56,739 nt of DNA from Dehalococcoidia bacterium (GTDB lineage: Bacteria > Chloroflexota > Dehalococcoidia > GIF9 > AB-539-J10), in the NCBI GenBank assembly GCA_049516035.1, contig JBEKTM010000004.1, forward strand, positions 1 through 56,739, written 5' to 3'. The notes under the pieces were generated by a model that saw only the letters and a list, made by a program, of their open reading frames with translations, had not been told where the DNA came from and ran no database searches. The position numbers and the translations under genes were made by a program. Below, one piece after another: positions 17,048-54,336 of the stretch (within the stretch, counting starts at the first letter, position 1; each line of letters begins with the position of its first letter).

Positions 17048-17833
17048 CTATTTTCTCAGAACAGCATCTCCCTTTTTCTGGAAATATTTTAGAAGCTCCC
17101 AGTTATTTCCCAAGGGGCTAAATTCTTTCAGTTCCTTCCTCGAGAGAATCATCAGTATTTGCTCTCCGCTATCATTTTTATAAATATTCTCTTCAGGCCA
17201 GGGAAAGTCACATTCCTGGGATATTTTAGTTATGTCGTCAAAGAAGTTGTGACCTGTCCAATTTTCCATCAGAACGATATAATTCGATATATTTAACATA
17301 TTTTTTAGAGCCTGAATATGTCTATTTCCTCGCCTGATATGCATCAGTACAGCCTGCGTATAAACTAAATCAACTTTTCCAAAAGTATTCAATATATCCT
17401 TCTTGGTAACATCTGCAACTGCCAATTTGCAAATATTCTTAAGGTCAGGATGCCGGGAAAGAAGAAAATCAATCTGGTTCTGGGATATATCCACACCGTA
17501 AAATTCTGCTTCAGGAAGCAAAAGGTGTAAATTATGGATATGGTCTCCACCTCCCACGCCGACTTCTAAAATAGACTTCGGATTCAAATGATAGATTGTC
17601 TCATAGAGTAATTGGTGATTCGGATTCAATGGCAACAGCATGGGGTTCAATAGGATTTTTCCTTCGATTATTTGATAGTCGTCTTTAGATAATACCAGCG
17701 TAAACTCATTGGTAATATCCGTTACTTGACGTTTATATGCCATATGATATTTCCGCCAATTAAAATCATCAACCTTGTAAAAGCGACTATACTTATTGAT
17801 TATGAATCTAACAACATCCTCTATAATCCTCAT
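17048..17833 (-). CDS. Class I SAM-dependent methyltransferase
   Basis: ILEVGVGGGDHIHNL motif I. Start moved to ATG 17833 because AAAGGAGGG lies about 10 nt upstream (the ORF-track start at 17908 has no RBS). Confidence 0.75.
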   Translation of the reverse strand: MRIIEDVVRFIINKYSRFYKVDDFNWRKYHMAYKRQVTDITNEFTLVLSKDDYQIIEGKILLNPMLLPLNPNHQLLYETIYHLNPKSILEVGVGGGDHIHNLHLLLPEAEFYGVDISQNQIDFLLSRHPDLKNICKLAVADVTKKDILNTFGKVDLVYTQAVLMHIRRGNRHIQALKNMLNISNYIVLMENWTGHNFFDDITKISQECDFPWPEENIYKNDSGEQILMILSRKELKEFSPLGNNWELLKYFQKKGDAVLRK

Positions 17834-17853
17834 TTTTATAGTACACCCTCCTT

Positions 17854-18039
17854 TTAAAGTTTTCTCAAAGACAAACATAGCTTGTGGGGGTGGATATCCT
17901 TGCCCCACAAATTTTTATATAAATCTCCTTTCCCATGCATATAGTAACAAATGCAAACTCCTTCCCATATCCTGTCCTCATAATAATACTCTGATGAAGG
18001 GTGAATAAACACCATTACATCTTTAGCCAGGATATTCAT
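17854..18039 (-). pseudogene. N-terminal remnant of a second GT10 fucosyltransferase-like gene
   Basis: MNILAKDVMVFIHPSSEYYYEDRIWEG parallels the N terminus of the 405-aa GT10 protein ([27 protein letters not shown]), then diverges and stops after 61 aa. Confidence 0.55.
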
Positions 18040-34929: not shown

Positions 34930-37409
34930 TCAGGACTGATTTGAGCCAAGATATTTAAAAACTTTCACAGTTGTTGCGTTCACAGTGGCCCCGGGCGGAT
35001 ATGGATATACGAGCTCATAACTGTTCAATTTCTCAAGAGGCACGATGCTACTAAAAGGATCATACCCCACTATTCCATAATTTCCCGACGTCTGGCTTGC
35101 AACATAAGCTTGAGCATCCTCATAGTTGGAAAAAAATACAGGTTGTCCAACAATATTCTTATACGTATAGAACTGCCCTTGCTGTTGGTACACTGATTCC
35201 CCACTCCATGGGATAACTACTGTGGAATTTATCGAAGGAGTCACTGCTTCGCCATTGAAGTTATAAAGCCTAACTGCAGTTGACATATATAAAGCCTAAC
35301 TGCAGTTGACATATAATAAGCGGGATAATAAAGCAAGTAGAGCGCTTGCGGGGCTCCACCGGCTACCTGTGGCGGTATCCCATAATATTCGTAAAAATCA
35401 TCCTCGCTCTCGTTAGCCCAATCCACCATAGCGTGAAACTTTCCAATTACCATGTCATAATCAATCATCACATATTTCGTACCTAAGTTGTACTGCTCCA
35501 CAACTTCCTGGGTGGAGCTTTCATTCTGGGCGGTAAAGAACTTGCCAGCCTGGACAGCTCCAGACTGACCGGGATTGGCATTGGGTATGCGATGGGCAAT
35601 TTGCATTATAAAGTAGCCGTAGTCCCACCAGGACATCACACCGTAGGCAGATTCAGGGTATTGGAACGGAGTCTTGTATAGCTTATAATAGAAATTGGGG
35701 TCATTAAGATCACCAAAAGGGTCGGGGCTGTTATCCCTTAACCACTGAAGAGAGCTATACCATCCCTCATTCATAGTAACAAGTGCTTGCGCGGCGTAAT
35801 ACCGTGTGTAGCCGATGTAAAGCCCACCGATTGATGTGGGCTCATCTCTCCACAGTCCAATACTGGGGAAAAAGACCAGGAAAAAGATGATTATTCCGAC
35901 AACGATGACATTTACCCAGGCACCTCTGGGCTGCATGAATGTTCTTGGTTTCGGTTTCGCCCTGGCTTTCTTTCCCTTCTTCTTGAATTTTCTAACTGCT
36001 ACCACTACTTCTTTAGACTTAGCCAGCAGTTTGCGTAAGCCAGCAATGTCCAGCATTTTCCAGGAGAAATACCCTGTGAGCAAGGCAGCGTTCACAGTAT
36101 AGTAATAACTGAAGCGGCGTTGCCCCAGGACCGCTATTAACATTATTATGCTCCATACCAGGAATAAGATTTTGTCGGCACTTTTTTCCTTAACAGCGAC
36201 ATAGATAAGCATAGCAATGGAAATAAATGAGATGAAGAAGGTGGTGTTAAAGTTAGCCCAGGCCATACTGAAGGTGAAAACGCCATTACCAAAAGGGAAA
36301 AGAAGAGGAGTCGCCTCCATGACAGTGAGCATAGCGCCGGACTGCTTGAAGATGCTAAATAGGCTGAGCATGGACTGAAACAAGAGGGGATTGATGGCAT
36401 GCAAAGCAGCAAGCCCGATTCCCGCCAGTCCCAGCAAGGTCAAGGGATAGTAAACAGGCTTCCAAGCCCTGCCTGCCATGAACCGTGAGATAATACTTAA
36501 GACTACGGGTAACACTATGGCAACCGGCAGAGACACCAGAGAAATGGTATCCAGGCTGCCCTTGACCAATATGGGAAGAAGCATGAGGAAGGCAACAAGG
36601 AAGAGAGGTGTGCCCACAATACACAGATAGTCGCTCGGTTTATGACTCAAGTGGTCCACGATGAACTGAATCACCAGGTAAACAAATATAATGAATACGA
36701 ACAGCAGCCCACCTGCCCAGGTAAGTAGGTAAATACCCAGGAAGATGCCAGCGATCAGGGTATAGACGAGAGGCTTGGTGATAGTTGACCAGTCTTTACT
36801 GAGAATGTGGCTGAAGGAAATCTCCCTTGCTCGAGCTCGCTTAATGGCCATTATCAGAAAGAGTATGCACACGGTGCTAAACAAAACCTCGGCTACATGG
36901 TGGTCGGTAAAGCCAAGCAAGGAACGATTCAGGAATTCGCCAGGCAAGATGGCAACCAAGGCAGCTGAAATTACGCCTACCCAGCGGTTAAACAGCTCCT
37001 TGCCAATAAAGTACACGGGGATGAGCGTCAGAGTGCCCAGGATAGGGGGTATATAAGCGGCCACTACTTCTATGGTATGCAGAGTTGGTGCCCCCCCCTT
37101 AACAAGCAGAATAATAGCAGAGATAAGCCAGGCGAAGAACGGGCGAGAAAGTGCTGCACTACCGCCGGGGAAGAGCATGTATGGGTCAAAAGTATTGTAG
37201 TGAGGAAAGTGTTTGAGCAGAACTTCTATGTTGCGTATGTAATAATAGGCATCAGTCTCTCGAAACCAAACCGCGCCATTGACAAAAATCTGGTCATGAG
37301 GCAAGGCTATCCGTATGTACAATGAGATGCCACAGATAGCGGCCAGAATTATGCCCCATATAGCTATTGAGGGGAGCCTTCGTTTTCGCTCTGGACTTTG
37401 CTCGCTCAC
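34930..37409 (-). pseudogene. STT3/AglB/PglB-family oligosaccharyltransferase, reading frame split by a 26-bp tandem duplication (ORFs 35241-37409 and 34930-35286)
   Basis: About 13 TM helices, then a soluble domain with the diagnostic WWDYG (YGVMSWWDYGYF). N-terminal loop acidic motif RETDAYYY and TDHH (DxH). Both ORFs contain MSTAVRLY at the duplication. Removing one 26-bp copy gives a continuous protein of about 817 aa. Confidence 0.8.
35262..35313. repeat. Perfect 26-bp tandem duplication (2 copies of tataaagcctaactgcagttgacata)
   Basis: Read directly: 35262-35287 equals 35288-35313. The length is not a multiple of 3, so it frameshifts the oligosaccharyltransferase gene. Confidence 0.95.
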
Positions 37410-38969: not shown

Positions 38970-40583
38970 TCAGCCCTTGGCTTTGCCAGCCTGTTTTGCC
39001 AGCCAGTATTCAATGCTGTCGGCCAGTGCCAGCCAGCTAGCTTCGATGATATTGGTGGAGCTGCCTACTGTCCGCCAGTTCTCCCGGCCGTCACTGGATT
39101 CAATGAGCACCCGGACCTGCGATGCAGTGCCTGCAGTTTCCTCCAGGATGCGCACCTTATAATCAATAAGTTTTACAACAGTCAAGTCCGGATAGAACTG
39201 GAGCAAAGCCTTGCGCAGAGCTTGGTCGAGGGCGTCGACTGGGCCATCGCCCTCAGCAGCTGTATGCACTACCCTATTATCTACCTTGACCTTGATAGTG
39301 GCCTCTGACAATGGCTCCTCTTGGTTTCCTCTGGTGGGCGGACGACGCCGCTTCTCCACCACGACCATGAAGTCAACTAGCTCGAAAGGTGGTCGATAGT
39401 CAGGCTGGGCTCGGCGGAGCAAAAGATCGAAGGACGCCTCGGCAGCATCATATTGAAAACCTTGCTTCTCTAATAGCTTAATTTGCTCCAGCACCTTCTC
39501 AACTTCTTTGCCTTTAGGGACAGGTAGTCCACGCTCCTTAGCTTTAAAGACAATACTGCCCTTCCCAGCCAGCTCGGAAACCACAACATATGGGCGGTTG
39601 CCTACCAGATTCGGCTTTATATGCTGGTAGCTATCTTCCCATTTTATTAAACCTGATACGTGAATCCCACCCTTATGAGTGAAGGCATCATCGCCTACAT
39701 AAGGAAGCCGGTCATAATGAGGCATATTGGCCAGTTCTGATACATAGCGAGAGACATCGCTGAGCTTGTTCAGTTGCTTGTCAGTAACGCAATCAATACC
39801 CATCTTGAGTTTCAAAGTTGGTATGATAGAACAGAGATTGGCATTGCCACAGCGCTCGCCATAGCCATTAATGGTCCCTTGAACCTGAACAACACCCGCT
39901 TCCACGGCAGCCAGGGTATTAGCTACGGCAAGCTCGGCATCATTATGGGTATGAATGCCCAAAGGAACAGCTGTCATTGCGAGCGAAGCGAAGCAATCTC
40001 GAACACCTTTAATAGCCTCCGCTATCTGTTGTGGCAGGCTGCCGCCATTGGTATCGCAAAGAATCACGCATTCGGCACCAGTCTTAGCCGCAGCCACCAC
40101 CACTTGCAAGACATATTCAGGATTATCTTTATATCCATCGAAGAAATGCTCGGCATCGAAGAAAACCTTGAGCCCTTTTCCCTTGAGGTAACTTATGGAA
40201 TCTGTAATCATGCTGAGGTTTTCTTCCAGCGTTGTTTCCAGAACTCGGGTTACCTGCTTATCCCAGGCTTTTCCTACAACAGTAACTACCTTGGTTTTGG
40301 CTTGAAGCATGGCCCGGAGATTAAGGTCTTTTTCTGCTCGGCAATCTGAGTGCCTAGTGCTGCCAAAAGCCACTAGAGTAGAATGTTTCAAGCGCAAATT
40401 CCGTGCCTGGGCAAAGAACTCGGTATCCTTAGGGTTAGAGCCTGGCCAGCCACCTTCGATGAAGTCAATGCCCAACTCGTCTAGCTTCTGACAAATCTTG
40501 AGTTTGTCTTCAACAGAAAAGGAAATGCCCTCTTGCTGGGCACCATCCCTTAAGGTCGTATCATAAAGCTGCACCGCTATCAT
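38970..40583 (-). CDS. cimA: (R)-citramalate synthase
   Basis: YDTTLRDGAQQEGISFSVEDKL, GIHTHNDAELAVANTLAAVEAG, and the long LeuA-dimer regulatory C-terminal domain. 537 aa. It contains an in-frame repeat copy (see 39973-40000). Confidence 0.85.
   Translation of the reverse strand: MIAVQLYDTTLRDGAQQEGISFSVEDKLKICQKLDELGIDFIEGGWPGSNPKDTEFFAQARNLRLKHSTLVAFGSTRHSDCRAEKDLNLRAMLQAKTKVVTVVGKAWDKQVTRVLETTLEENLSMITDSISYLKGKGLKVFFDAEHFFDGYKDNPEYVLQVVVAAAKTGAECVILCDTNGGSLPQQIAEAIKGVRDCFASLAMTAVPLGIHTHNDAELAVANTLAAVEAGVVQVQGTINGYGERCGNANLCSIIPTLKLKMGIDCVTDKQLNKLSDVSRYVSELANMPHYDRLPYVGDDAFTHKGGIHVSGLIKWEDSYQHIKPNLVGNRPYVVVSELAGKGSIVFKAKERGLPVPKGKEVEKVLEQIKLLEKQGFQYDAAEASFDLLLRRAQPDYRPPFELVDFMVVVEKRRRPPTRGNQEEPLSEATIKVKVDNRVVHTAAEGDGPVDALDQALRKALLQFYPDLTVVKLIDYKVRILEETAGTASQVRVLIESSDGRENWRTVGSSTNIIEASWLALADSIEYWLAKQAGKAKG
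39973..40000 (+). repeat. 28-nt copy of the dispersed palindromic repeat embedded in frame in cimA
   Basis: gtcattgcgagcgaagcgaagcaatctc, identical to 50652-50679. On the cimA strand it encodes RDCFASLAMT between AIKGV and AVPLGIHTHND. Confidence 0.9.
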
Positions 40584-42550: not shown

Positions 42551-42706
42551 TTTTAACCTCCTTAGTTTTTTCACTTCCCATATTACACCATTAATTTAGT
42601 TTCAGGCTCACAAACGCTTTATTCAGACAACGATGTTGTTAGTTATAAAGTATGCACAAGGCAGATTTAGCTAAGCAAGAGTTCCGAAGTCACCAGAATC
42701 TAATAG

Positions 42707-43141
42707 TCACCAATACCTTTTTCCCTCAAGGAAGCTACCAACACCTGCTTTGTTGATTTTCCTTAAATTCTTTATATGAGCATCTCCATGAACTGGCTTT
42801 AGGAAGTCTAATTTTTCACATGTTTCAAATTCATCGCATTCCCAACAGCCATCAATACCTTTCTTCTGGCAACATTTTCTCACTTGACAGAAAGACGGGC
42901 CGTCACCACCTTTGCAGACATCTTTGCATCTTAATCTAACCAGTGCTCCCAAGACTTCATAACATTCCTTATAATGTTGGAATTCCTTAAAGGGGATCCC
43001 TTCAGCTACTCTATCAAACTTTGCCTGCCTCAGTTCTTTTCTAAGGTCTCTGGCTAAATCGGCAATCTTTCCTTTGTAGCCAAAGCAATCTCCACAATAA
43101 AGACCACAATAGGCGATTAAGTTTCCATCTCTTTCACACAT
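42707..43141 (-). CDS. Cysteine-rich DUF3795-like protein
   Basis: CGLYCGDC...CKGG...C..RKCC...G...CWEC..F..C pattern as in DUF3795 family proteins. Confidence 0.6.
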   Translation of the reverse strand: MCERDGNLIAYCGLYCGDCFGYKGKIADLARDLRKELRQAKFDRVAEGIPFKEFQHYKECYEVLGALVRLRCKDVCKGGDGPSFCQVRKCCQKKGIDGCWECDEFETCEKLDFLKPVHGDAHIKNLRKINKAGVGSFLEGKRYW

Positions 43142-43271
43142 TCCTTTTTCTCCTTCCGTTACTTAAATTAGAGTCGATAAAGTTCTCACTATATCTGAAG
43201 TTTGCCCATCAAGACGATCCGGGGGAATCTCCACCTCTTATCTGCTGTTGAGCGACGTGTTGCCCATCTTT

Positions 43272-43847
43272 TCATTTTATCGACTTCTTAGTGTTCACCT
43301 TCAACCGTGGGATAAACATGGGTGTCCTTTTCTTATATTCAACATAATCTTCGCCCAGGCGTTTTTCTAATTCCCGTTCCTCAACTACTTTTAATTCCCA
43401 CACGTTAAACAGAATAAATAACGGAGTGAATATAGAGACAAGGGAAATTGACCTAAGTAGAACACCGATTCCGAACAACAAGACAAACACACCCGTGACC
43501 ATGGGATTTCTGACATGGGCATAAGGGCCAGTGGTAACCAGTTTAGGTGGCGGGTTGAAAGGCACCGGCGTTCCCCTTACACCGACAAACTGCAGAATTG
43601 ACCATGCCATCAGGAACAGCCCGATAGCAAGGAGAGGCGCGGATACAATAATATTCAAAGCTGTAGAAAGGAGTTTGGGGAAGTCCAAGCATCTGTCCAC
43701 TTGAAGAGCAGCAAAAATGAATAATGCTATAAAGCCAAAAAAGAAGACTATCCCGGCAGGAGTAAGAAGATTTCGCATCTTGCGGCTGCCTGTTGCAGCC
43801 CTATAGAAAATTCCAATCAATCTTTCACGCAGACTCATAATATCCAC
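43272..43847 (-). CDS. Isoprenylcysteine carboxyl methyltransferase / phospholipid methyltransferase-family membrane protein
   Basis: LVTTGPYAHVRNPMVTG....EERELEKRLGEDYVEYKKRTPMFIP, the characteristic ICMT/PEMT C-terminal motif. Four to five TM helices. Confidence 0.75.
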   Translation of the reverse strand: MDIMSLRERLIGIFYRAATGSRKMRNLLTPAGIVFFFGFIALFIFAALQVDRCLDFPKLLSTALNIIVSAPLLAIGLFLMAWSILQFVGVRGTPVPFNPPPKLVTTGPYAHVRNPMVTGVFVLLFGIGVLLRSISLVSIFTPLFILFNVWELKVVEERELEKRLGEDYVEYKKRTPMFIPRLKVNTKKSIK

Positions 43848-43966
43848 CTCTGTTTAAGGCGGCTTTTCGGCTTTTTTCTGCCACTATGGTCTGCCAGAAT
43901 CTTTTCAGCTTCGCAAGACCCCAATTTCTCCTCTATTCACTGTTGTTCGAGATTTGCAGATTCTTT

Positions 43967-46300
43967 TCAAGAAAATATTCCCTGAACTTCAACATAGTTA
44001 ACAGTACCCATTTTGATATCTTCTTTCAAAGCATCTTTAATTTCCCCTTTTGCCGAGAAATACATGATTTGCCACCCCAATTCACAGATTCTTTCTAGCG
44101 TTTCAATCTGTCTTTGTAATCTATCAGGATCAGCTTTTATGAACGGGTCATCCATGATGAAAAACCCTTTCTTGCCTTTCAAAAGCTTTTCTCCCAGAGC
44201 GAGTCGAATAGAGAGATATAGTTGGTCATAGGCGCCTCCAGATAGCTTTTCTGCCTCCAATATCTTCCCACCCCTCCGCTTGACCTGTATTTTCATTGCT
44301 TCTTGGTTCAAGAGCACCTCTTCATAGAGCCCATTTGTTATTGCATTAAAATATTTTGAAACGGGGCTCTCAATACCGAAAAGCTCAGAAACTTTTACCG
44401 TCTCCTCTCTTTCTATTTCTTCAAAGATTTCTATGACTTTTAATGCATTGTCCTTATTATTTTCATTTTCTTGCTTAAACCTTTGAAGTTCGGTTTTAAT
44501 CACTTTCAAATCTACTGACGTCTCACAATATAACGGCTCTTTTAATCTCAGAATGTCAATCGCCTCGTGTTCCACTTCCTTCATTTCTTTTTGAAAAGAA
44601 GCAATCATGTCGTTCACCTGTCGGAGCTTCTTTACAAACTCTTCTTTTTCCCCGTCCAGTGTTGATTTAGTAGCCTCACTATACGTCATATCTTTGGCTT
44701 TATCCTTATACTCCTCAAGTCTTTGAACTTCTTCGCTCCAGTGAGCAATATTTTCTTTTAATTCTTTGCCCCTTTCCTTAAAATGACTTTTCAGAAACCT
44801 TTCCTGCTCTCTGACCGTCATTTCGCGCGCTTTCCTTAATTCAAGCTTTTCAGCGTATTTTTCTAAAGAGTCTTCTTTGGACTTTATTTTTACCCCCTGC
44901 ATCTTCTCTTCAGCATCCTTAACCCTACTTTCTATTCCTGGAATTTCTTTATCCCGGAGTCCATTAACTCTGTCTTCTAATCCTCTCTTTCCCTCTCTCA
45001 GCTCTTGTAACTCCTCGGACTTCTCCCCATATTTTTCTTCAAATTTCTGGATATTTGAACGCATCTCTTCTGGACTTTCTGCTTCAAGTTCAAATCTAGA
45101 GATGTTTACCTTTATTCTTGCGAATACTCCAGCAAGATGAGCTTTCTTTCGCGTGAACTCAAAACTCAGCCCTGCAAAGGCGATGGTTGATATTAGAAAC
45201 AATGCAAGCAGTCCGTAAGAAACAAATGAAGGACTTAGTACGACTGCCAATATCGATATTGCTAACAATACTGCCGAGGTTATTGCTGCCACTGCATAGA
45301 ACTTGTTCCTTGTTTCCTTACTCTTTACCTCTCCAAGCCCTATCTCATAGTTCCTCAACTCTGGTTTAACTTCGTCATCCAACTTTTTCTTTCTCTCTTC
45401 GAAGATTTTGAATTCTCTTTCTACCTCTCTCAACTTCCCGCCTATCTCCTGGAGTCGTTCATCTTTTTCCCGAAGATCTCTAAGATATTCTTCCTTTCGT
45501 TCGTTGTAATCTTTAATGACTTTCTCGCAATCTCTCCACAGTTGCCTGTCGTCCTCACTGTAAATCCCCAAGCCTTCGACTTCTTTTAAAGCACTGGTGA
45601 GTGCATCCAGTGCTTCTCTTCCCTTCTCGTATTCCCTTCTTTTCCTTGCATCTTCAAGATCTTTTATCTCTTGGTCAATCCTCTTTATTTCCTCACTTAG
45701 CTTTACAGATTCTTCTTCGAACTCATCGAATCTCTCTTTTTCAATCTTCCCAGCTAAAGTCTCAACCTTCTCGAGGAGCTTTTTTGCATTTTCTACTCTC
45801 GTTTTTAATCTTTCTTCTTTAGTATCTTTAAATTCACCAGTCTGCTGTGTTATTTTCCCTATCCTCTCCCTCAGCACTTCCTTGATGTTTGCGATCTCTT
45901 TGGTCCTTAAGCCAGTAAGTCGACCTGTTACATCAGTGTAAAAATCACCTTCACTAGCAATGGAGAGGTCGCTATTCCTTATTACAAAAATATTACGGCA
46001 TTCTGATGAGGTTAAATTTGAATCTGTGACTTTTGTTAAGTCTCCTTGCTCCGGCAGTTTGAATTCTTTCCCCTTGTCGTCTTCTATAATCACATAGCCT
46101 TCTGGTTTTTCCTCCACCCGATCTATACTACGGTCGAAATCCTTAATGTTTCGCCCCAATAGCAACTTCACAAGCGCATCTATTGTAAGGGTCTTACCAT
46201 CTTCATTCTTACCCCAAAATAGATTGAAATTTTGTAGTGAAATTCTCCCCGTATTTGGTAAAGGACCATAACGCATTATTGAGAATTCTTTCAGTTTCAT
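43967..46300 (-). CDS. SMC/Rad50/SbcC-like ABC ATPase with a central transmembrane hairpin (YhaN/SbcE-like)
   Basis: N-terminal Walker A GKNEDGKT, very long K/E-rich coiled coils, and two hydrophobic helices mid-protein (FYAVAAITSAVLLAISILAVVL; YGLLALFLISTIAFAGLSF). C-terminal signature LSGGAYDQLYLSIRLAL and Walker B FFIMDDPF. Confidence 0.75.
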   Translation of the reverse strand: MKLKEFSIMRYGPLPNTGRISLQNFNLFWGKNEDGKTLTIDALVKLLLGRNIKDFDRSIDRVEEKPEGYVIIEDDKGKEFKLPEQGDLTKVTDSNLTSSECRNIFVIRNSDLSIASEGDFYTDVTGRLTGLRTKEIANIKEVLRERIGKITQQTGEFKDTKEERLKTRVENAKKLLEKVETLAGKIEKERFDEFEEESVKLSEEIKRIDQEIKDLEDARKRREYEKGREALDALTSALKEVEGLGIYSEDDRQLWRDCEKVIKDYNERKEEYLRDLREKDERLQEIGGKLREVEREFKIFEERKKKLDDEVKPELRNYEIGLGEVKSKETRNKFYAVAAITSAVLLAISILAVVLSPSFVSYGLLALFLISTIAFAGLSFEFTRKKAHLAGVFARIKVNISRFELEAESPEEMRSNIQKFEEKYGEKSEELQELREGKRGLEDRVNGLRDKEIPGIESRVKDAEEKMQGVKIKSKEDSLEKYAEKLELRKAREMTVREQERFLKSHFKERGKELKENIAHWSEEVQRLEEYKDKAKDMTYSEATKSTLDGEKEEFVKKLRQVNDMIASFQKEMKEVEHEAIDILRLKEPLYCETSVDLKVIKTELQRFKQENENNKDNALKVIEIFEEIEREETVKVSELFGIESPVSKYFNAITNGLYEEVLLNQEAMKIQVKRRGGKILEAEKLSGGAYDQLYLSIRLALGEKLLKGKKGFFIMDDPFIKADPDRLQRQIETLERICELGWQIMYFSAKGEIKDALKEDIKMGTVNYVEVQGIFS

Positions 46301-47376
46301 GCTCTTGGCTTTCTCTTTGCCTCCACCATTGCTCTTATTGCCACATCACGCAGCTGTTTTTTCTTTTCTCCATCGTCACTACATTGCTCGAGTTTGCTCA
46401 TGAAGTTTTTGAACAGGTCATCTTCTAGTATTACGTGTATGTCTCTGAATTCAAAAGTCGGTTCCTTTGCACATTTCCCTTTCGTGATTTCTTTTATTTG
46501 TTTTACAAGTTCAGATTCGCTTATTCCAATCCTTTCCCCGTCGATATACCCCTTAATTGTCAAGATGATGCTTGCTTGAGGGTGAACTTTCCCAAGCCGT
46601 TCTTTAACCTCCTCTACAGGTTTTTTCTCCCCAAAAGGATCAAACTTTATAAGCACTTCCTCAAAATGATGTGTGTCAAGAAGGTATTCCTTGGGCGGGC
46701 CCCCAACTTCAAAAATATTTACCCTTCTCTGCCCAATCTCCGCTTCCGTTATCGAGATAGGCGATCCCGGATAAACAAAGTATCTTTCATTTCCTAGCTC
46801 ACGTATATCAAATTTTGAATGGAAATGTCCGGCAAGCACATAATCAATGTTCAAATCTTTGAAATAAGAAAGCCAAACTGGCATATATCTTTTTTCACCC
46901 TCGTCGCCGAAATCTCTCCTAGAAAAGAACGCATTAAGCAATTCCCCGTGATAAAGCAGGATATTTTTCTTATCTGTAGTCAAACTGTTTCTTAACAGGC
47001 GGAGCTTACTGAGAATCTTTTCCCCTTCTATAGACTCGAAAGGTAATCCCCATATCCTCACGTCTTCACATTCATCAAAGGGTTCATATAAATTCGTTAA
47101 TATAGATACATCAGCGCCAAAATACATACTACTCTGATACGACTCACTATCGTGGTTCCCTGGAATTAAAATGATTTTAAAGCCAGTGTCCGAGAAAATC
47201 TTTCGTATTTCGAGTTTTAAGTTTTCAGCATCAATATCACTATTAAAGAGATCTCCACTTATCACAAAAATCTCAACTTCTTCCTGCTTGCCAATTTCAA
47301 TTAGCTTTTGGAGTACCTTCCACCTATCGTCTTCATATGCTCTTAAGTGGATATCTGCTGTATGGAGTATCTTCAT
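46297..47376 (-). CDS. Calcineurin-like metallophosphoesterase nuclease subunit (SbcD/Mre11/YhaO-like)
   Basis: Motifs DIHL, GDLF, GNHD, GHFH in canonical order. ATGA overlap with the ATPase gene. Confidence 0.8.
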   Translation of the reverse strand: MKILHTADIHLRAYEDDRWKVLQKLIEIGKQEEVEIFVISGDLFNSDIDAENLKLEIRKIFSDTGFKIILIPGNHDSESYQSSMYFGADVSILTNLYEPFDECEDVRIWGLPFESIEGEKILSKLRLLRNSLTTDKKNILLYHGELLNAFFSRRDFGDEGEKRYMPVWLSYFKDLNIDYVLAGHFHSKFDIRELGNERYFVYPGSPISITEAEIGQRRVNIFEVGGPPKEYLLDTHHFEEVLIKFDPFGEKKPVEEVKERLGKVHPQASIILTIKGYIDGERIGISESELVKQIKEITKGKCAKEPTFEFRDIHVILEDDLFKNFMSKLEQCSDDGEKKKQLRDVAIRAMVEAKRKPRA

Positions 47377-47509
47377 TTTTACCTCTCCATGTTCCTCAGA
47401 CCCGAGAACTTCGCCCCGAGGTGAATATCGGCAGTGTGCAAAATTTTGAGCATAACCAATGTCCCTTTGCCAGGAGGGTTGTTAAAATTCTTAAACTAAG
47501 GTCCCCCTT

Positions 47510-47537
47510 GAAATTGCTTCGCTCCGCTCGTAATGAC
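47510..47537 (-). repeat. Degenerate reverse-orientation copy of the dispersed palindromic repeat
   Basis: gaaattgcttcgctccgctcgtaatgac matches the reverse complement of the 28-mer at 25 of 28 positions by hand count. It lies between the mgtC-like stop and the nuclease gene start. Confidence 0.7.
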
Positions 47538-47541
47538 CCTC

Positions 47542-47958
47542 TTAGCCACGAACCTTAGGAAGAAATAAAACACCTACGGTGACCGCGGTTGCTATAACTG
47601 AGAGCCAATACATTCCTGTCCCCGCAGCTAGACCGATAGCAGCAGCCGCCCACATGCTAGCGGCTGTGGTTAGCCCGGCTACTCCCTCTCCACGCATGCC
47701 CCGAAAGATAACGCCAGCGCAAATGAAACCAATTCCAGCTACCACTCCAGCAGCAACTCGAGAGACATCCGCTGTACCACCAGTAAACCCATATATAGAC
47801 ACCAAGGTGAAAAGGGCTGCTCCGGAGCAAACTAATATATGCGTGCGCATTCCCGCGGCCTTGCCTGCTCGCTCTCGCTGATAACCAACGGCTGCCCCCA
47901 AGCCAGCTGCCAATAAAAACCTCAATATCATTTCTAGCAAGGAATTCAAGTTCATCAC
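47542..47958 (-). CDS. MgtC/SapB-family membrane protein
   Basis: 138 aa, four TM helices, GYQRE..GK.AG.RTH.LV motif typical of the MgtC N-terminal domain. Confidence 0.75.
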   Translation of the reverse strand: MMNLNSLLEMILRFLLAAGLGAAVGYQRERAGKAAGMRTHILVCSGAALFTLVSIYGFTGGTADVSRVAAGVVAGIGFICAGVIFRGMRGEGVAGLTTAASMWAAAAIGLAAGTGMYWLSVIATAVTVGVLFLPKVRG

Positions 47959-48019
47959 CTCCGCATTTAGAATATCTCAGAGAGTTTAATTTCTAGATTC
48001 AAAATCTTTGCCTCCGACA

Positions 48020-50359: not shown

Positions 50360-50440
50360 GTCATTGCGAACGAAGTGAAGCAATCTCGGTGGCAGGGTAT
50401 TCGTGGGGATTGCTTCGGCACTTACGTGTCTCGCAATGAC
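50360..50440. repeat. Composite palindrome: two inverted copies of the dispersed repeat
   Basis: Left arm gtcattgcgaacgaagtgaagcaatctc (50360-50387). Right arm gggattgcttcggcacttacgtgtctcgcaatgac (50406-50440) in reverse orientation. Confidence 0.85.
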
Positions 50441-50453
50441 GAGCAGAGTTGAA

Positions 50454-51332
50454 ATGATGGCTGAAATTATTTATCTCAACGGTCAACTTATCCCTCGCTC
50501 TGAGGCCAAGCTGTCTCCGTTCGACCACGGCTTCCTTTACGGATACGGCTTATTCGAGACCATGCGAGCCTACAACGGCCATATCTTTCGCCTCGACTCT
50601 CATCTCACCCGCCTTCGCCATTCTGCCGAGATACTCGGTCTGATGTATAATGTCATTGCGAGCGAAGCGAAGCAATCTCTAGAGAGTGCCTGTACAGCAA
50701 CTTTAGAAGCTAATAAGCTCAAGGACGCTCGCCTGAGGCTCACCGTTTCGACAGGTGAAGGCGATATGACGCCCGACCCCAGCACCTGCACCAGTCCTAC
50801 TATCCTGATCACTGCTCAAAACCTTGTTCCCTTACCACCCGAAAAATATGAATCAGGCTTCAAAGCAGCCATATCTTTCCTGCGTCGCAATAGCCAGTCA
50901 CCTTTATCTCGATTGAAATCCACTTGCTATATGGAAAATATCCTCGCCCGCATGGCAGCCAAAGCTGGGGGATGCGATGAAGCTATCCTCCTCAATGAAC
51001 AAGGCTACCTGGCCGAAGGCAGCACGACTAATGTCTTCATTGTGAGCCATGGAGAGCTCATCACACCTTGTTTTGAAAGCGGTGTCCTGCCCGGCATCAC
51101 CAGGGACGCAGTCCTGGAAATAGCCCGGACTTCAAATATCAAGGCCACAGAAAGATGGGTGGAGTTAAACGAACTAATCGAGGCTGAAGAAGCCTTCCTC
51201 ACCAATTCCATACTGGAGCTTATGCCTTTGGTCTCCATCGAGGGCAGGACTATCGGTTCGGGCAAACCCGGCAAGCTAACCAAAGATTTGCTGTTTGCTT
51301 ATAGAAAACTCGTAGACGAAGCAGTACAATAG
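50454..51332 (+). CDS. Class IV (fold-type IV) PLP enzyme: aminodeoxychorismate lyase (PabC) or branched-chain amino acid aminotransferase
   Basis: FDHGFLYGYGLFETMRAY, LEGSTTNVF-like (AEGSTTNVFIV), LPGITRD. Start set at ATG 50454 because the ORF-track extension from 50403 is translation of the repeat. It contains an in-frame repeat copy at 50652-50679. Confidence 0.8.
   Translation: MMAEIIYLNGQLIPRSEAKLSPFDHGFLYGYGLFETMRAYNGHIFRLDSHLTRLRHSAEILGLMYNVIASEAKQSLESACTATLEANKLKDARLRLTVSTGEGDMTPDPSTCTSPTILITAQNLVPLPPEKYESGFKAAISFLRRNSQSPLSRLKSTCYMENILARMAAKAGGCDEAILLNEQGYLAEGSTTNVFIVSHGELITPCFESGVLPGITRDAVLEIARTSNIKATERWVELNELIEAEEAFLTNSILELMPLVSIEGRTIGSGKPGKLTKDLLFAYRKLVDEAVQ
50652..50679 (+). repeat. 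28-nt copy of the dispersed palindromic repeat embedded in frame in the class IV aminotransferase gene
   Basis: gtcattgcgagcgaagcgaagcaatctc, identical to 39973-40000. It encodes VIASEAKQS within ...ILGLMYN-VIASEAKQS-LESACTA... Confidence 0.9.
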
Positions 51333-52239: not shown

Positions 52240-52287
52240 ATCCATACATATGGATGGAAGTATGTACAATTGGCAGGAGTATGTGAT

Positions 52288-52563
52288 ATGAAAAGAAAAG
52301 TAACCTTAGTATTTCACGATGAAGACCTTTACACGCAACTGAGAATAGAGGCGATCAGAAGGCGTACAACCGCAAGCAACATCGTAGCAGATGCTGTGCG
52401 GGAATGGTTAGAGAGCCGTGAAGATGCCGAATTGTTGCCCGTAATTGATTCAGCTCGTGCCGAATGGAAAGAGAAGGGTGGGCGCCCGTGGTCCGAAGCA
52501 GAACGTGAATTAGAGGAATCGATTAGCCGTCGAGAGGGGCGTGCCCGGGCAAGGCGTGTATAG
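52288..52563 (+). CDS. Ribbon-helix-helix (CopG-like) type II antitoxin
   Basis: MKRKVTLVFHDEDLYTQLRIEAIRRRTTASNIVADAVREWL fits a beta-strand plus two helices RHH fold. AGGAG lies 8 nt upstream of ATG 52288. Stop overlaps the toxin start. Confidence 0.65.
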   Translation: MKRKVTLVFHDEDLYTQLRIEAIRRRTTASNIVADAVREWLESREDAELLPVIDSARAEWKEKGGRPWSEAERELEESISRREGRARARRV

Positions 52564-52828
52564 ACTTGAGATATCACCGGCTGCCGACCGCGACGTGGAG
52601 AAGCTCAAGGGCCGGATTCGCATGCAGGACTTTGAGCGATTGAGGAATGCCGTCAGGAGCTTAGCCGAGGAACCTCGCCCCCGGGGAGTCAGGAAGATAA
52701 GAGGCGCAGAGAAGGCTTATCGCATCAGGGTGGGCAATTACCGGGTGGTTTATGATGTTTATGACAGCGACGGGCTGGTATTGATTCTGCAGGTTGCCCG
52801 CAGGAGTGAGACAACCTATCGCCAGTAG
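52556..52828 (+). CDS. RelE/ParE-family type II toxin
   Basis: YRLEISPAADRDVEKL....YRIRVGNYRVVYDVYDSDGLVLILQVARRSETY, the typical RelE/StbE pattern. GTG 52556 overlaps the antitoxin stop (alternative GTG 52541). Confidence 0.8.
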   Translation: MYRLEISPAADRDVEKLKGRIRMQDFERLRNAVRSLAEEPRPRGVRKIRGAEKAYRIRVGNYRVVYDVYDSDGLVLILQVARRSETTYRQ

Positions 52829-52882
52829 CTCTGGTAATCAACGAGAGGCTGAAGTCCATCCGGAACTACGGATACTCCCAAG

Positions 52883-52933
52883 ACATAATGCCTGATTTGT
52901 GGCAGGCCTGATTGGTGTGGTATCCTTAAAATT
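52883..52933 (+). repeat. Cassette-associated 51-nt repeat, copy A
   Basis: acataatgcctgatttgtggcaggcctgattggtgtggtatccttaaaatt. Gapless alignment to copies B and C at 40 of 51 and 42 of 51 positions by hand count. Confidence 0.85.
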
Positions 52934-52994
52934 AAGTATTTTCTTTAAGGAGTGCGTCGTGCCCGTGATGAGGTCAAGAAAGAGGTGATGAACA

Positions 52995-53243
52995 ATGGCC
53001 AAAACTGGTGGTTACAAAGGTAAGCTACTGGAAGAGGTGAAGTCGCTTTCCGAGGGACGGGTCAAGGCCGTGGCTGACTTCGCCGCCTACCTCAAGGAAA
53101 GGGAGGAGTGGGAGGCAACAGGGGAAATCCTGGGCGACGAGGAGCTGGCGCAGCAGGTGAAGGAGTCTCGGAAAGCATGGGCTGAAGATAGGAAGGGAGA
53201 GTTTGTCTCTCTGGAGGAGCTGAAGGCGAAGCTAAATGTATAA
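52995..53243 (+). CDS. Putative type II antitoxin
   Basis: 82-aa acidic protein immediately upstream of and overlapping (8 nt, ATGTATAA) a RelE-like toxin gene. Confidence 0.6.
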   Translation: MAKTGGYKGKLLEEVKSLSEGRVKAVADFAAYLKEREEWEATGEILGDEELAQQVKESRKAWAEDRKGEFVSLEELKAKLNV

Positions 53244-53490
53244 CGTTGTTCTGAGCCGGAATGCCTCCAGAACACTGGAAAAAGCCACCCCAACCATGAG
53301 ACGTCGCGTCATCGTTGCTTTGGAAAGACTCAAGTCCAAGCCCCACAGTGGAAAGAGACTCCGGGGTGAACTAGAAGGGTTGTTCAGTTTGCGCATCGGC
53401 GGTATGCGGGCTGTGTATGGACTAGATACCAGGAAGAACGTGGTGGTCGTCCTTGCCATTGGCCCTCGGGGCGACATCTACAATAAGTGA
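53236..53490 (+). CDS. RelE/StbE-family type II toxin
   Basis: LSRNASRTLEK....RRRVIVALERL...P..GKRLRGELEGLFSLRIGGMRAVYGLDTRKNVVVVLAIGPRGDIY, the typical RelE pattern. Confidence 0.8.
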   Translation: MYNVVLSRNASRTLEKATPTMRRRVIVALERLKSKPHSGKRLRGELEGLFSLRIGGMRAVYGLDTRKNVVVVLAIGPRGDIYNK

Positions 53491-54194: not shown

Positions 54195-54336
54195 GCTTCA
54201 TTTCCAGCAATTGGAAACTATACCTCAATTTATAGCTGCGCCGGGCGCGGCTGTCATCAATTATAGCAAAGGATGTCGCTGCCACAGGAATAGCCAGGAA
54301 AGTGCGTTCAATTCCAGTATGGCGCTATTCTGGGGG

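Follow-up and report, generated by a model that had tools for sequence, protein, structure and literature searches.

The stretch of DNA analysed here (the window, 56,739 nucleotides, nt) comprises positions 1 to 56,739 of contig JBEKTM010000004.1 from a Dehalococcoidia bacterium (assembly GCA_049516035.1). On its minus strand lie two genes, which encode an Mre11/SbcD-type nuclease of 359 amino acids (aa) (46297..47376) and a Rad50/SbcC-like ATP-binding cassette (ABC) ATPase of 777 aa (43967..46300). The two open reading frames (ORFs) overlap by 4 bp, ATGA. In Mre11-Rad50, one of the most thoroughly studied machines of DNA repair, the zinc hook is held to be a defining element. The ATPase of the window has a predicted transmembrane helical hairpin in place of this hook (codons 336-384, 45149..45295, minus strand).

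The nuclease consists of a phosphoesterase core, a capping domain and two C-terminal helices (aa 320-355). The motifs DIHL, GDLF, GNHD, YHGE and GHFH are all present; an earlier note on this DNA had quoted four of them (DIHL, GDLF, GNHD and GHFH) as metallophosphoesterase motifs, and these lie in family columns that do not vary. Among 30 aligned homologues, D8, H10, D42, N74, H75, H143, H184 and H186 are invariant. The Pfam profile Metallophos matches the protein (E 8.8e-17), and the sbcD subfamily model TIGR00619 matches at E 4.8e-14 with 52.8 bits, below its cutoff of 77.65. Several Mre11 models match likewise below cutoff, and the protein scores far below the cutoffs of all NCBIfam sbcD/Mre11 equivalog models. 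Among solved SbcD/Mre11 structures, S. aureus SbcD is the best sequence match at 32.9 bits. An AlphaFold2 (AF2) model of the nuclease (predicted local distance difference test, pLDDT, 82.7; predicted template modelling score, pTM, 0.75) was compared with the PDB by Foldseek, as the earlier note had proposed, and the top 50 matches are all Mre11/SbcD structures. They include full-length T. maritima Mre11 from the Rad50 complex (3qg5_C, E 1e-15). In the model, the C-terminal helices resemble the Rad50-binding helix-loop-helix and occupy its place. The nuclease shares 64-85% identity among its 120 best relatives, and its ratio of non-synonymous to synonymous substitution rates (dN/dS) is 0.13-0.25. 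By its motifs and its predicted fold, the 359-aa protein is an intact Mre11/SbcD-type nuclease with a complete set of catalytic residues.

The ATPase has a split head (approximately aa 1-160 and 640-777) joined to coiled-coil arms of about 185 and 215 helical residues. Its Walker A motif or P-loop GKNEDGKT (aa 30-37, 46190..46213, minus strand) and the stretch with the signature LSGGAYDQLYLSIRLAL and the Walker B motif FFIMDDPF (aa 686-721, 44138..44245, minus strand) lie on invariant columns, and all three motifs are found as the earlier note had listed them for a Rad50/SbcC-type head. In the family alignment G30, N32, E33, G35, K36 and T37 are invariant, and G.NE.GKT is seen in nearly all relatives. 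The protein keeps Walker A and LSGG, whereas Walker B and the H-loop depart from hhhhDE and His. Walker B has Asp in place of the catalytic Glu, and 244 of 247 relatives are D-D here. At the H-loop, an invariant Lys751 stands in for His; YFSAK pairs there with FFTCH of Listeria YhaN. At the sequence level, the last 140 residues match the Rad50 C-lobe (E 1e-6), and fold matches found with Foldseek include 7zr1_C (E 2e-9) and P. furiosus Rad50 (TM 0.55-0.64). About 400 residues are modelled by AF2 as long helices, with pLDDT 80-89 in the coils. The dN/dS of the ATPase is 0.12-0.27.

Residues 336-384 are the sole strongly hydrophobic stretch of the ATPase, with a Kyte-Doolittle peak of 2.75 in a 19-residue window. 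The hairpin reads AVAAITSAVLLAISILAVVL, turn SPSF, VSYGLLALFLISTIAFAGLSF. On an additive Hessa-type scale, the insertion free energies (dG) of its two segments sum to -2.5 and -0.2 kcal/mol; the median for other windows of the protein is +26. Each segment spans about 20 residues and has no internal charge; the flanks carry +1 and +4 and the loop is neutral. Such basic flanks around an uncharged turn would suit a hairpin whose two ends lie in the cytoplasm. AF2 draws a helix at 249-355, a turn at 356-358 and a returning helix at 359-401, so that the hairpin would cap the coiled coil in the place taken by the zinc hook in Rad50/SbcC. No CxxC occurs anywhere in the ATPase, whose cysteines are limited to positions 101, 258, 592 and 739, and just one of 247 full-length relatives has a central CxxC. 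The hairpin itself is retained in 240 of the 247, scored as a central hydrophobic span of at least 38 residues in the same place. Its hydrophobicity is conserved while its sequence drifts, with S342 invariant. The proposal of the earlier note that two hydrophobic helices stand where a CxxC hook would be is thus borne out by hydropathy, dG, AF2 and conservation, and the apex hairpin probably inserts in the membrane.

The ATPase has many relatives. A word-indexed search returned 655, of which the best 120 are all 744-804 aa long. With the family profile, a HMMER scan of 1.84 billion representatives yielded 523 clusters (50% identity) at E <=1e-30; the best 150 of these profile matches are mostly full-length proteins of about 760-800 aa, the rest being fragments or longer forms. 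JGI annotation of the relatives is mixed, with some called YhaN and others SbcC. More than 400 metagenome loci carry the family. Of 95 loci from genomes and metagenomes, 92 have the nuclease gene immediately before the ATPase gene; the contigs of the other three stop too early to show its place, which makes it 92 of 92 testable loci. The two genes are strictly coupled, they overlap, and purifying selection acts on both. Two matches labelled as Listeria phage were dropped as phage homologues, as they proved to be chromosomal yhaO-yhaN-yhaM DNA of Listeria. A promoter and terminator scan of 43700-47700 gave no useful signal, with fewer sites than in shuffled controls.

Orphan fragments of the ATPase were observed on the Omnitrophota chromosome CP070807, at two distant sites with no nuclease gene beside either. 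One (locus L013, 10001-11227) corresponds to aa 23-435 at 64% identity, and the other (L015, 10001-10234) corresponds to aa 1-78 and is 95% identical to the Dehalococcoidia copy of the window at the amino acid level and 89% at the nucleotide level. These appear to be either pseudogene remnants of a recent inter-phylum transfer or assembly chimeras.

The pair resembles Mre11-Rad50 and SbcCD in the Mre11 catalytic motifs and fold, the split ABC head, Walker A, LSGG, the antiparallel coiled coil and the pairing in an operon. It differs from them in the predicted membrane hairpin that takes the place of the CxxC hook, in a Walker B with D-D rather than the D-E of Rad50/SbcC, in an H-loop Lys rather than His and in a gene order with the nuclease first. 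Against the NCBIfam equivalog cutoffs of this group, the window proteins score 39 vs 700 and 53 vs 78 bits.

The earlier note had named YhaO/YhaN (SbcF/SbcE) of B. subtilis as the nearest described analogue. A Listeria locus in our set (L023) has the order yheB-like, yhaO (411 aa), yhaN (907 aa), yhaM, prsA, and the same yhaO-yhaN-yhaM operon has been described for B. subtilis SbcF/SbcE (PMC2811018). As in the window, the Listeria nuclease gene precedes the ATPase gene with a 4-bp overlap, and YhaN has long coiled coils with a central pair of hydrophobic helices and no zinc hook. The Listeria hairpin is TFVSFGVFAVALSLMIVF-QSIW-SVALVFVSALIVGYAIM (aa 429-467, dG +1.2 and -0.8). YhaN also has a D-D Walker B (IIIDDGF in Listeria, aligned to that of the window), and the Listeria protein shares the motif QLYLAIRFAL after the signature position. 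Over 110 columns of the C-terminal head, hhalign aligns the two ATPases with 97% probability and 31% identity. Searched with the family profile, Listeria YhaN reaches 45 bits (E 4e-11) and the best PDB Rad50 35 bits. Because the Listeria operon shares the hairpin, the D-D Walker B and the 4-bp overlap, the analogy with YhaN/SbcE is real.

At the level of sequence families the two pairs part. The window proteins are shorter (777 vs 907-963 aa and 359 vs 411 aa), and the window ATPase has a canonical LSGG where Listeria YhaN has LSQAT, and Lys where YhaN has the H-loop His. It matches the Pfam model AAA_27 over positions 1-52 of 206 only, with 20.8 bits at a cutoff of 22, in contrast to positions 1-204 and 83.5 bits for Listeria YhaN. 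The nuclease scores 23.9 bits vs YhaO and 32.9 bits vs SbcD. There is no yhaM-like gene downstream of the window pair, and unlike YhaO-YhaN its family is found in archaea and many non-Firmicute phyla, often in defence islands. We also considered whether the Pro of the hairpin turn corresponds to the "conserved proline" of SbcE; this is unsupported, as the turn of Listeria YhaN has no Pro. Judged from these comparisons, the window pair is a distinct and more compact family that has the architecture of YhaO-YhaN and is remotely related to it, so the analogy of the earlier note holds for architecture and fails for membership of the sequence family. It is best filed within the Mre11-Rad50/SbcCD machines, with YhaO-YhaN nearest in architecture, and it fails the sequence tests of each of these families.

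In B. subtilis, the central domain of SbcE has been described as unique, rich in hydrophobic residues and insoluble, and it is not termed a membrane anchor; SbcE forms polar foci in competent cells as well as nucleoid-associated foci, and SbcE mutants are sensitive to double-strand breaks and have a mild transformation defect (PMC2811018). A table of the staphylococcal surface proteome lists YhaN as a predicted membrane protein (PMC7137321). In the literature searched, which was not complete, we found no membrane-anchored Rad50/SMC-like apex beyond these two sources, no reading of the SbcE "unique central domain" as a membrane anchor, and no description of this pair or of an Mre11-type system as a defence system.

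The ATPases of several defence systems that resemble structural maintenance of chromosomes (SMC) proteins, namely Lamassu LmuB, Wadjet JetC, DndD/PbeC and Gabija GajA, also combine an ABC/SMC-type head with a coiled coil and coupling to a nuclease. They occur in the same islands as the pair, with GajA, LmuB-like proteins and PbeC/DndD as direct neighbours in several loci. The window effector is an Mre11-type phosphoesterase and not Cap4, Mrr, TOPRIM or Sir2, and we know of no membrane-inserted apex described for the LmuB, JetC, DndD/PbeC or GajA systems.

Copies of the pair in archaea (Thermoplasmatota, Methanobacteriota, Aenigmatarchaeota and a CetZ-encoding archaeon) are 58-62% identical to the window protein. 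In the tree, these archaeal copies are mixed, at 55-62% identity, with bacterial ones from Aerophobetes, Atribacteria, Desulfotomaculum, Deltaproteobacteria and other Dehalococcoidia. To judge from these sequences, the family is one that moves horizontally across the boundary between bacteria and archaea. For the neighbourhoods outside the Chloroflexota we used the 57 loci left after dropping the Chloroflexota synteny group and duplicate contexts, and neighbours within three genes were annotated by Pfam and PADLOC, with large neighbours chosen for per-protein scans. At least 25 of these 57 non-redundant loci (44%) have a strong defence-gene match within three genes; this is a raw count with no matched background that favours large neighbours, and it is a lower bound because many contigs are short. 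Gabija GajA lies near the pair in seven loci, with GajB confirmed in both loci tested (L048, L089). Other neighbours include DruE (642 bits), BrxC (2025 bits), a class II prokaryotic Argonaute (pAgo, 683 bits), a type III restriction enzyme (361 bits), type I and type IIG restriction-modification (R-M) genes, LmuB-like ATPases, PbeC/DndD, HEC-05, PDC-S06, PDC-S37, PDC-S73, a ZorD/DpdE-type helicase, a HerA-like protein, a Ppl-like protein and an MNT/HEPN pair. The survey of homologous neighbourhoods that the earlier note had proposed therefore finds defence genes in many loci elsewhere and housekeeping neighbours in the lineage of the window, and the possible role in defence that it had raised gains independent support from outside the Chloroflexota.

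In ten loci of one subclade (L061, L063, L066-L068, L076, L078, L081, L096 and L097), a 220-aa zinc-ribbon protein beginning MAQCKRCGEKGFFLSVSENGLCESCE is encoded directly upstream of the pair. It has no Pfam or PADLOC match, and the gene downstream of the pair in these loci varies between DUF6946, GajA and an LmuB-like gene. This pattern fits a cassette at a defence hotspot, in which the zinc-ribbon protein may be a third component or a hotspot flank.

In the lineage of the window the surroundings of the pair are stable. The gene order is GATase - leuA - mgtC - [pair] - variable slot - glyoxalase/Zn-ribbon - leuB, and the site between leuA-mgtC and glyoxalase-leuB recurs in 22 further Chloroflexota contigs, with ATPase identities from 99% down to about 63%. 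The five syntenic copies that were sampled form one clade in a rough neighbour-joining tree. As both the shared site and the single clade speak against a recent arrival, the pair is an old, vertically inherited resident of this lineage. The variable slot follows the ATPase (42575..43875, minus strand) and is delimited by locus maps and by alignment breaks vs L024, L026 and L028. According to Pfam it holds a PEMT-like gene (43272-43847) and a DUF3795 gene (42707-43141). In close relatives the slot contains DUF6308 (L026, 12422-13168) or a 303-aa protein with no family match (L024, 12424-13470), or is empty (L028, 3681-3692). When window positions 43900-48000 are compared with L026 and L028, the locus is a mosaic: nucleotide identity to L026 is about 75-78% in mgtC and 75-88% in the flanks; the nuclease gene reaches 82% in its 5' half and the ATPase gene 96-100%, and the synonymous divergence (dS) of the nuclease is three- to four-fold that of the ATPase in the same genome pair. 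This mosaic divergence suggests recombination or allele exchange among related Dehalococcoidia.

The module has 39.4% G+C, vs a gene mean of 47.4%, and the G+C content at third codon positions (GC3) of the pair is 0.385 vs 0.499 +/- 0.058 in the 44 other genes of the window. The earlier note had put many 60-nt lines of the module at about one third G+C, which overstates the case: 12 of 56 lines in the module, and 1 of 70 in the leu genes, have 35% or less. Of the deficit of about 8 points, approximately 3-4 come from amino acid composition (the protein is rich in K, E and I, and the expected G+C of the pair under host codon usage is 44%) and about 4.5 from codon choice. The pair has the same shortfall in GC3 in syntenic relatives, in one archaeal and in one deltaproteobacterial host, so that low G+C is a trait of the family and not a sign of recency. 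The composition of the pair thus differs from that of the other genes, as the earlier note had expected, without indicating that the acquisition which it had drawn from this was recent. A second low-G+C gene was observed at 17048-17908 (minus strand), with 36.8% G+C and a GC3 of 0.383 in a region that otherwise has 45-50%.

A short ORF precedes the nuclease gene on the same strand (47379..47453; 24 codons, MLKILHTADIHLGAKFSGLRNMER and stop). It encodes another N-terminus with Mre11 motif I, in the canonical DIHLG form, with the start MLKILHTADIHLGAKFSGLG and host-like codons, and it differs from the start of the nuclease itself at nearly every synonymous site. In the window the ORF stops 2 nt before the nuclease ATG. 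An upstream ORF of 24-26 codons is present in the window and in 22 further loci (L002, L005, L016, L021, L024-L040 and L051), all of them in the Chloroflexota synteny group except L034 and L037, whose contigs are too short for flanks; it is absent at the pair in other phyla. In every case it ends 2-5 nt before the ATG or GTG of the nuclease or overlaps it, and across the 23 sequences the variable sites at codon positions 1/2/3 number 8/5/16. At its 3' end, the bases GGAGAGGTAAAAATG are similar to the leader that natively precedes the pair in other phyla, such as GGGGAGATAAAATG in L018. A displaced resident sbcD-type gene probably left this ORF as its stump, which would now be a translated leader. 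In an ancestor the pair would have landed about 20 codons into the resident gene, and the stump would have become a leader coupled to the start of the nuclease.

Taken together, these features lead us to propose, with a probability of roughly 0.45, that the pair forms a membrane-tethered, ATP-gated DNA-end nuclease of the Mre11-Rad50 type, whose most likely role would be to restrict incoming linear DNA. In such a machine, the nuclease dimer would be cytoplasmic and rest on the ATPase heads, in the manner of Mre11-Rad50, and the two proteins would join through the C-terminal helices of the nuclease. The arms, with a reach of at most about 30 nm for their approximately 185-215 helical residues, would extend to the membrane, where the hairpin would insert with both termini inside (N-in, C-in) and replace the zinc hook as the junction of the two arms. 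Binding of ATP would close the heads on DNA and gate the cleavage of ends or hairpins; ATP turnover may be slow, because Walker B has Asp for Glu and the H-loop Lys for His. As the machine would be fixed at the membrane, its natural substrates would be DNA ends located there, supplied by phage injection, conjugation or uptake of linear DNA. The copy in the window is anciently fixed in the chromosome and would be expressed behind its conserved leader ORF. We hold more tentatively a wider reading, in which the pair is a widespread and undescribed two-gene immune system of bacteria and archaea, with a Rad50-like ATPase anchored in the membrane by its apex and an Mre11-type nuclease that, kept no more than about 30 nm from the membrane, would capture and destroy the free ends of entering DNA.

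Several points weigh against this proposal. The support for membrane insertion consists of hydrophobicity scales and an AF2 monomer, and the head of the ATPase is modelled with pLDDT <50, too poorly for conclusions on the active-site geometry. The neighbourhood count is subject to the bias given above, and the neighbours in the lineage of the window itself are the housekeeping genes leuA, mgtC and leuB and not a defence island; housekeeping neighbours are also found in L004, L017, L020 and L022. The PADLOC search that the earlier note had proposed did not yield an assignment: PADLOC 2.0 and NCBIfam defence models match the two proteins at noise level only, the best matches being JetC and LmuB for the ATPase (E approximately 1e-3, through the coiled coil) and PDC-S10 (6e-7) and DS9_1 (9e-5) for the nuclease, far below cutoff. 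We therefore dropped the assignment to a named defence system. Many defence systems travel on plasmids or phages, and searches of plasmids, phage records and IMG/VR viral contigs returned no homologue of the pair.

Three other explanations have to be set against a membrane-tethered nuclease that restricts entering DNA. The apex of Rad50/SMC proteins is normally a dimerisation element, and the helices could form a soluble hydrophobic bundle of two or four chains, a protein-only substitute for the hook that would leave the complex cytoplasmic. That the authors of the SbcE study call its central domain merely hydrophobic and insoluble, with foci on the nucleoid as well as at the poles, would agree with this. 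We consider it improbable: two charge-free segments of about 20 residues, with a Kyte-Doolittle peak of 2.75, dG at or below zero, Lys/Arg flanks and a turn of 3-6 residues, are classic features of a membrane hairpin that far exceed soluble coiled-coil cores. Their hydrophobic character is kept despite sequence drift, and staphylococcal YhaN is predicted as a membrane protein in a surface-proteome study (PMC7137321). Still less probable, to the point that we reject it on synteny and phylogeny, is the view that the pair is a recently acquired AT-rich island, flanked by a repeat, in an accessory block rich in toxin-antitoxin genes. The low G+C and GC3, a repeat copy upstream, the variable slot directly downstream and two RelE/ParE-like pairs 5 kb away are what this view can draw upon. 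Against it, site, upstream ORF and repeat are the same in relatives whose ATPase is only 63-68% identical, the syntenic copies are one clade, the low GC3 is shared by relatives, and about 3-4 of the roughly 8 points of deficit are owed to a composition rich in K, E and I. The horizontal acquisition that the earlier note had suggested is for the same reasons not upheld as a recent event in this genome.

The third explanation is harder to set aside. The pair could be a housekeeping complex for repair or recombination like B. subtilis SbcEF, acting on breaks or on the ends of transforming DNA, with the tether serving localisation and no part in immunity. This is the reading that homology to Mre11-Rad50 and the architecture shared with YhaO-YhaN would suggest, and the break sensitivity and mild transformation defect of SbcE mutants (PMC2811018) agree with it. 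The stable, core-like position in 22 further Chloroflexota contigs, the housekeeping neighbours in the four loci named above, the purifying selection on the pair and the lack of copies in plasmid and phage collections point the same way, and in L003 the pair adjoins an MrfA/MrfB-like repair helicase and exonuclease. The patchy, cross-domain distribution at 55-62% identity would be unusual for a repair gene passed on vertically, and at least 25 of 57 non-Chloroflexota loci lie among defence genes. The pair is also AT-rich relative to several different hosts, and its proteins do not belong to the YhaN/YhaO sequence families. We regard the repair complex as somewhat unlikely and favour restriction over a role in repair or competence like that of SbcEF because of the transfer between domains and the defence-island neighbourhoods.

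More than 500 clusters (50% identity) from many bacterial and archaeal phyla of anoxic sediments have the hook systematically replaced by a predicted hairpin, and the barely studied SbcE/YhaN of the Firmicutes is likewise hookless with a hydrophobic apex. If the anchoring is true, it would offer a concrete model for SbcEF, which was left unresolved in 2010, and it would raise the question of how an SMC-like clamp works with its apex fixed in the bilayer. The neighbouring Gabija, BREX, pAgo, R-M, Druantia-like and Lamassu-like genes make the pair a good candidate for an anti-foreign-DNA system at the point of entry. Were it an immune system, one would regard SbcEF as a remote relative based on the same principle, and the competence and polar-localisation phenotypes of SbcE could be read anew.

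Between mgtC and the upstream ORF lies a diverged copy (25/28 bases) of a 28-nt palindromic repeat (47510..47537, minus strand), which the earlier note had pointed out as flanking the module. The repeat, GTCATTGCGAGCGAAGCGAAGCAATCTC, is present in four copies in the window (39973-40000, 50360-50387 and 50652-50679 on the plus strand, and 47510-47537 on the minus strand). The copy beside the pair is conserved in position in L002 and L021; being conserved in relatives and dispersed in the window, it was rejected as an insertion scar or boundary, although the repeat itself is real. Two perfect copies sit in frame within conserved enzyme genes: one adds VIASEAKQS to an ilvE-like aminotransferase (aa 83-93), and the other, read antisense, adds CFASLAMT to a cimA/leuA-like synthase (aa 195-204).

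Two RelE/ParE-like toxin-antitoxin pairs (97 + 95 aa and 82 + 84 aa) lie at 52270-53490. They are 5 kb from the module, beyond leuA, GATase, an aminotransferase and a gene with an AP-endonuclease fold, and to place the module next to toxin-antitoxin-rich DNA, as the earlier note did, is a stretch across four housekeeping genes. Direct repeats of 52 nt follow each of the two pairs (at 52882 and 53508), with a third copy at 54336. Elsewhere in the window, a perfect 26-nt tandem duplication (two copies of TATAAAGCCTAACTGCAGTTGACATA, 35262-35313) lies in the 3' end of an STT3/AglB-like oligosaccharyltransferase ORF (35241-37409, minus strand) and also in the 5' end of an overlapping 118-aa ORF (34930-35286).

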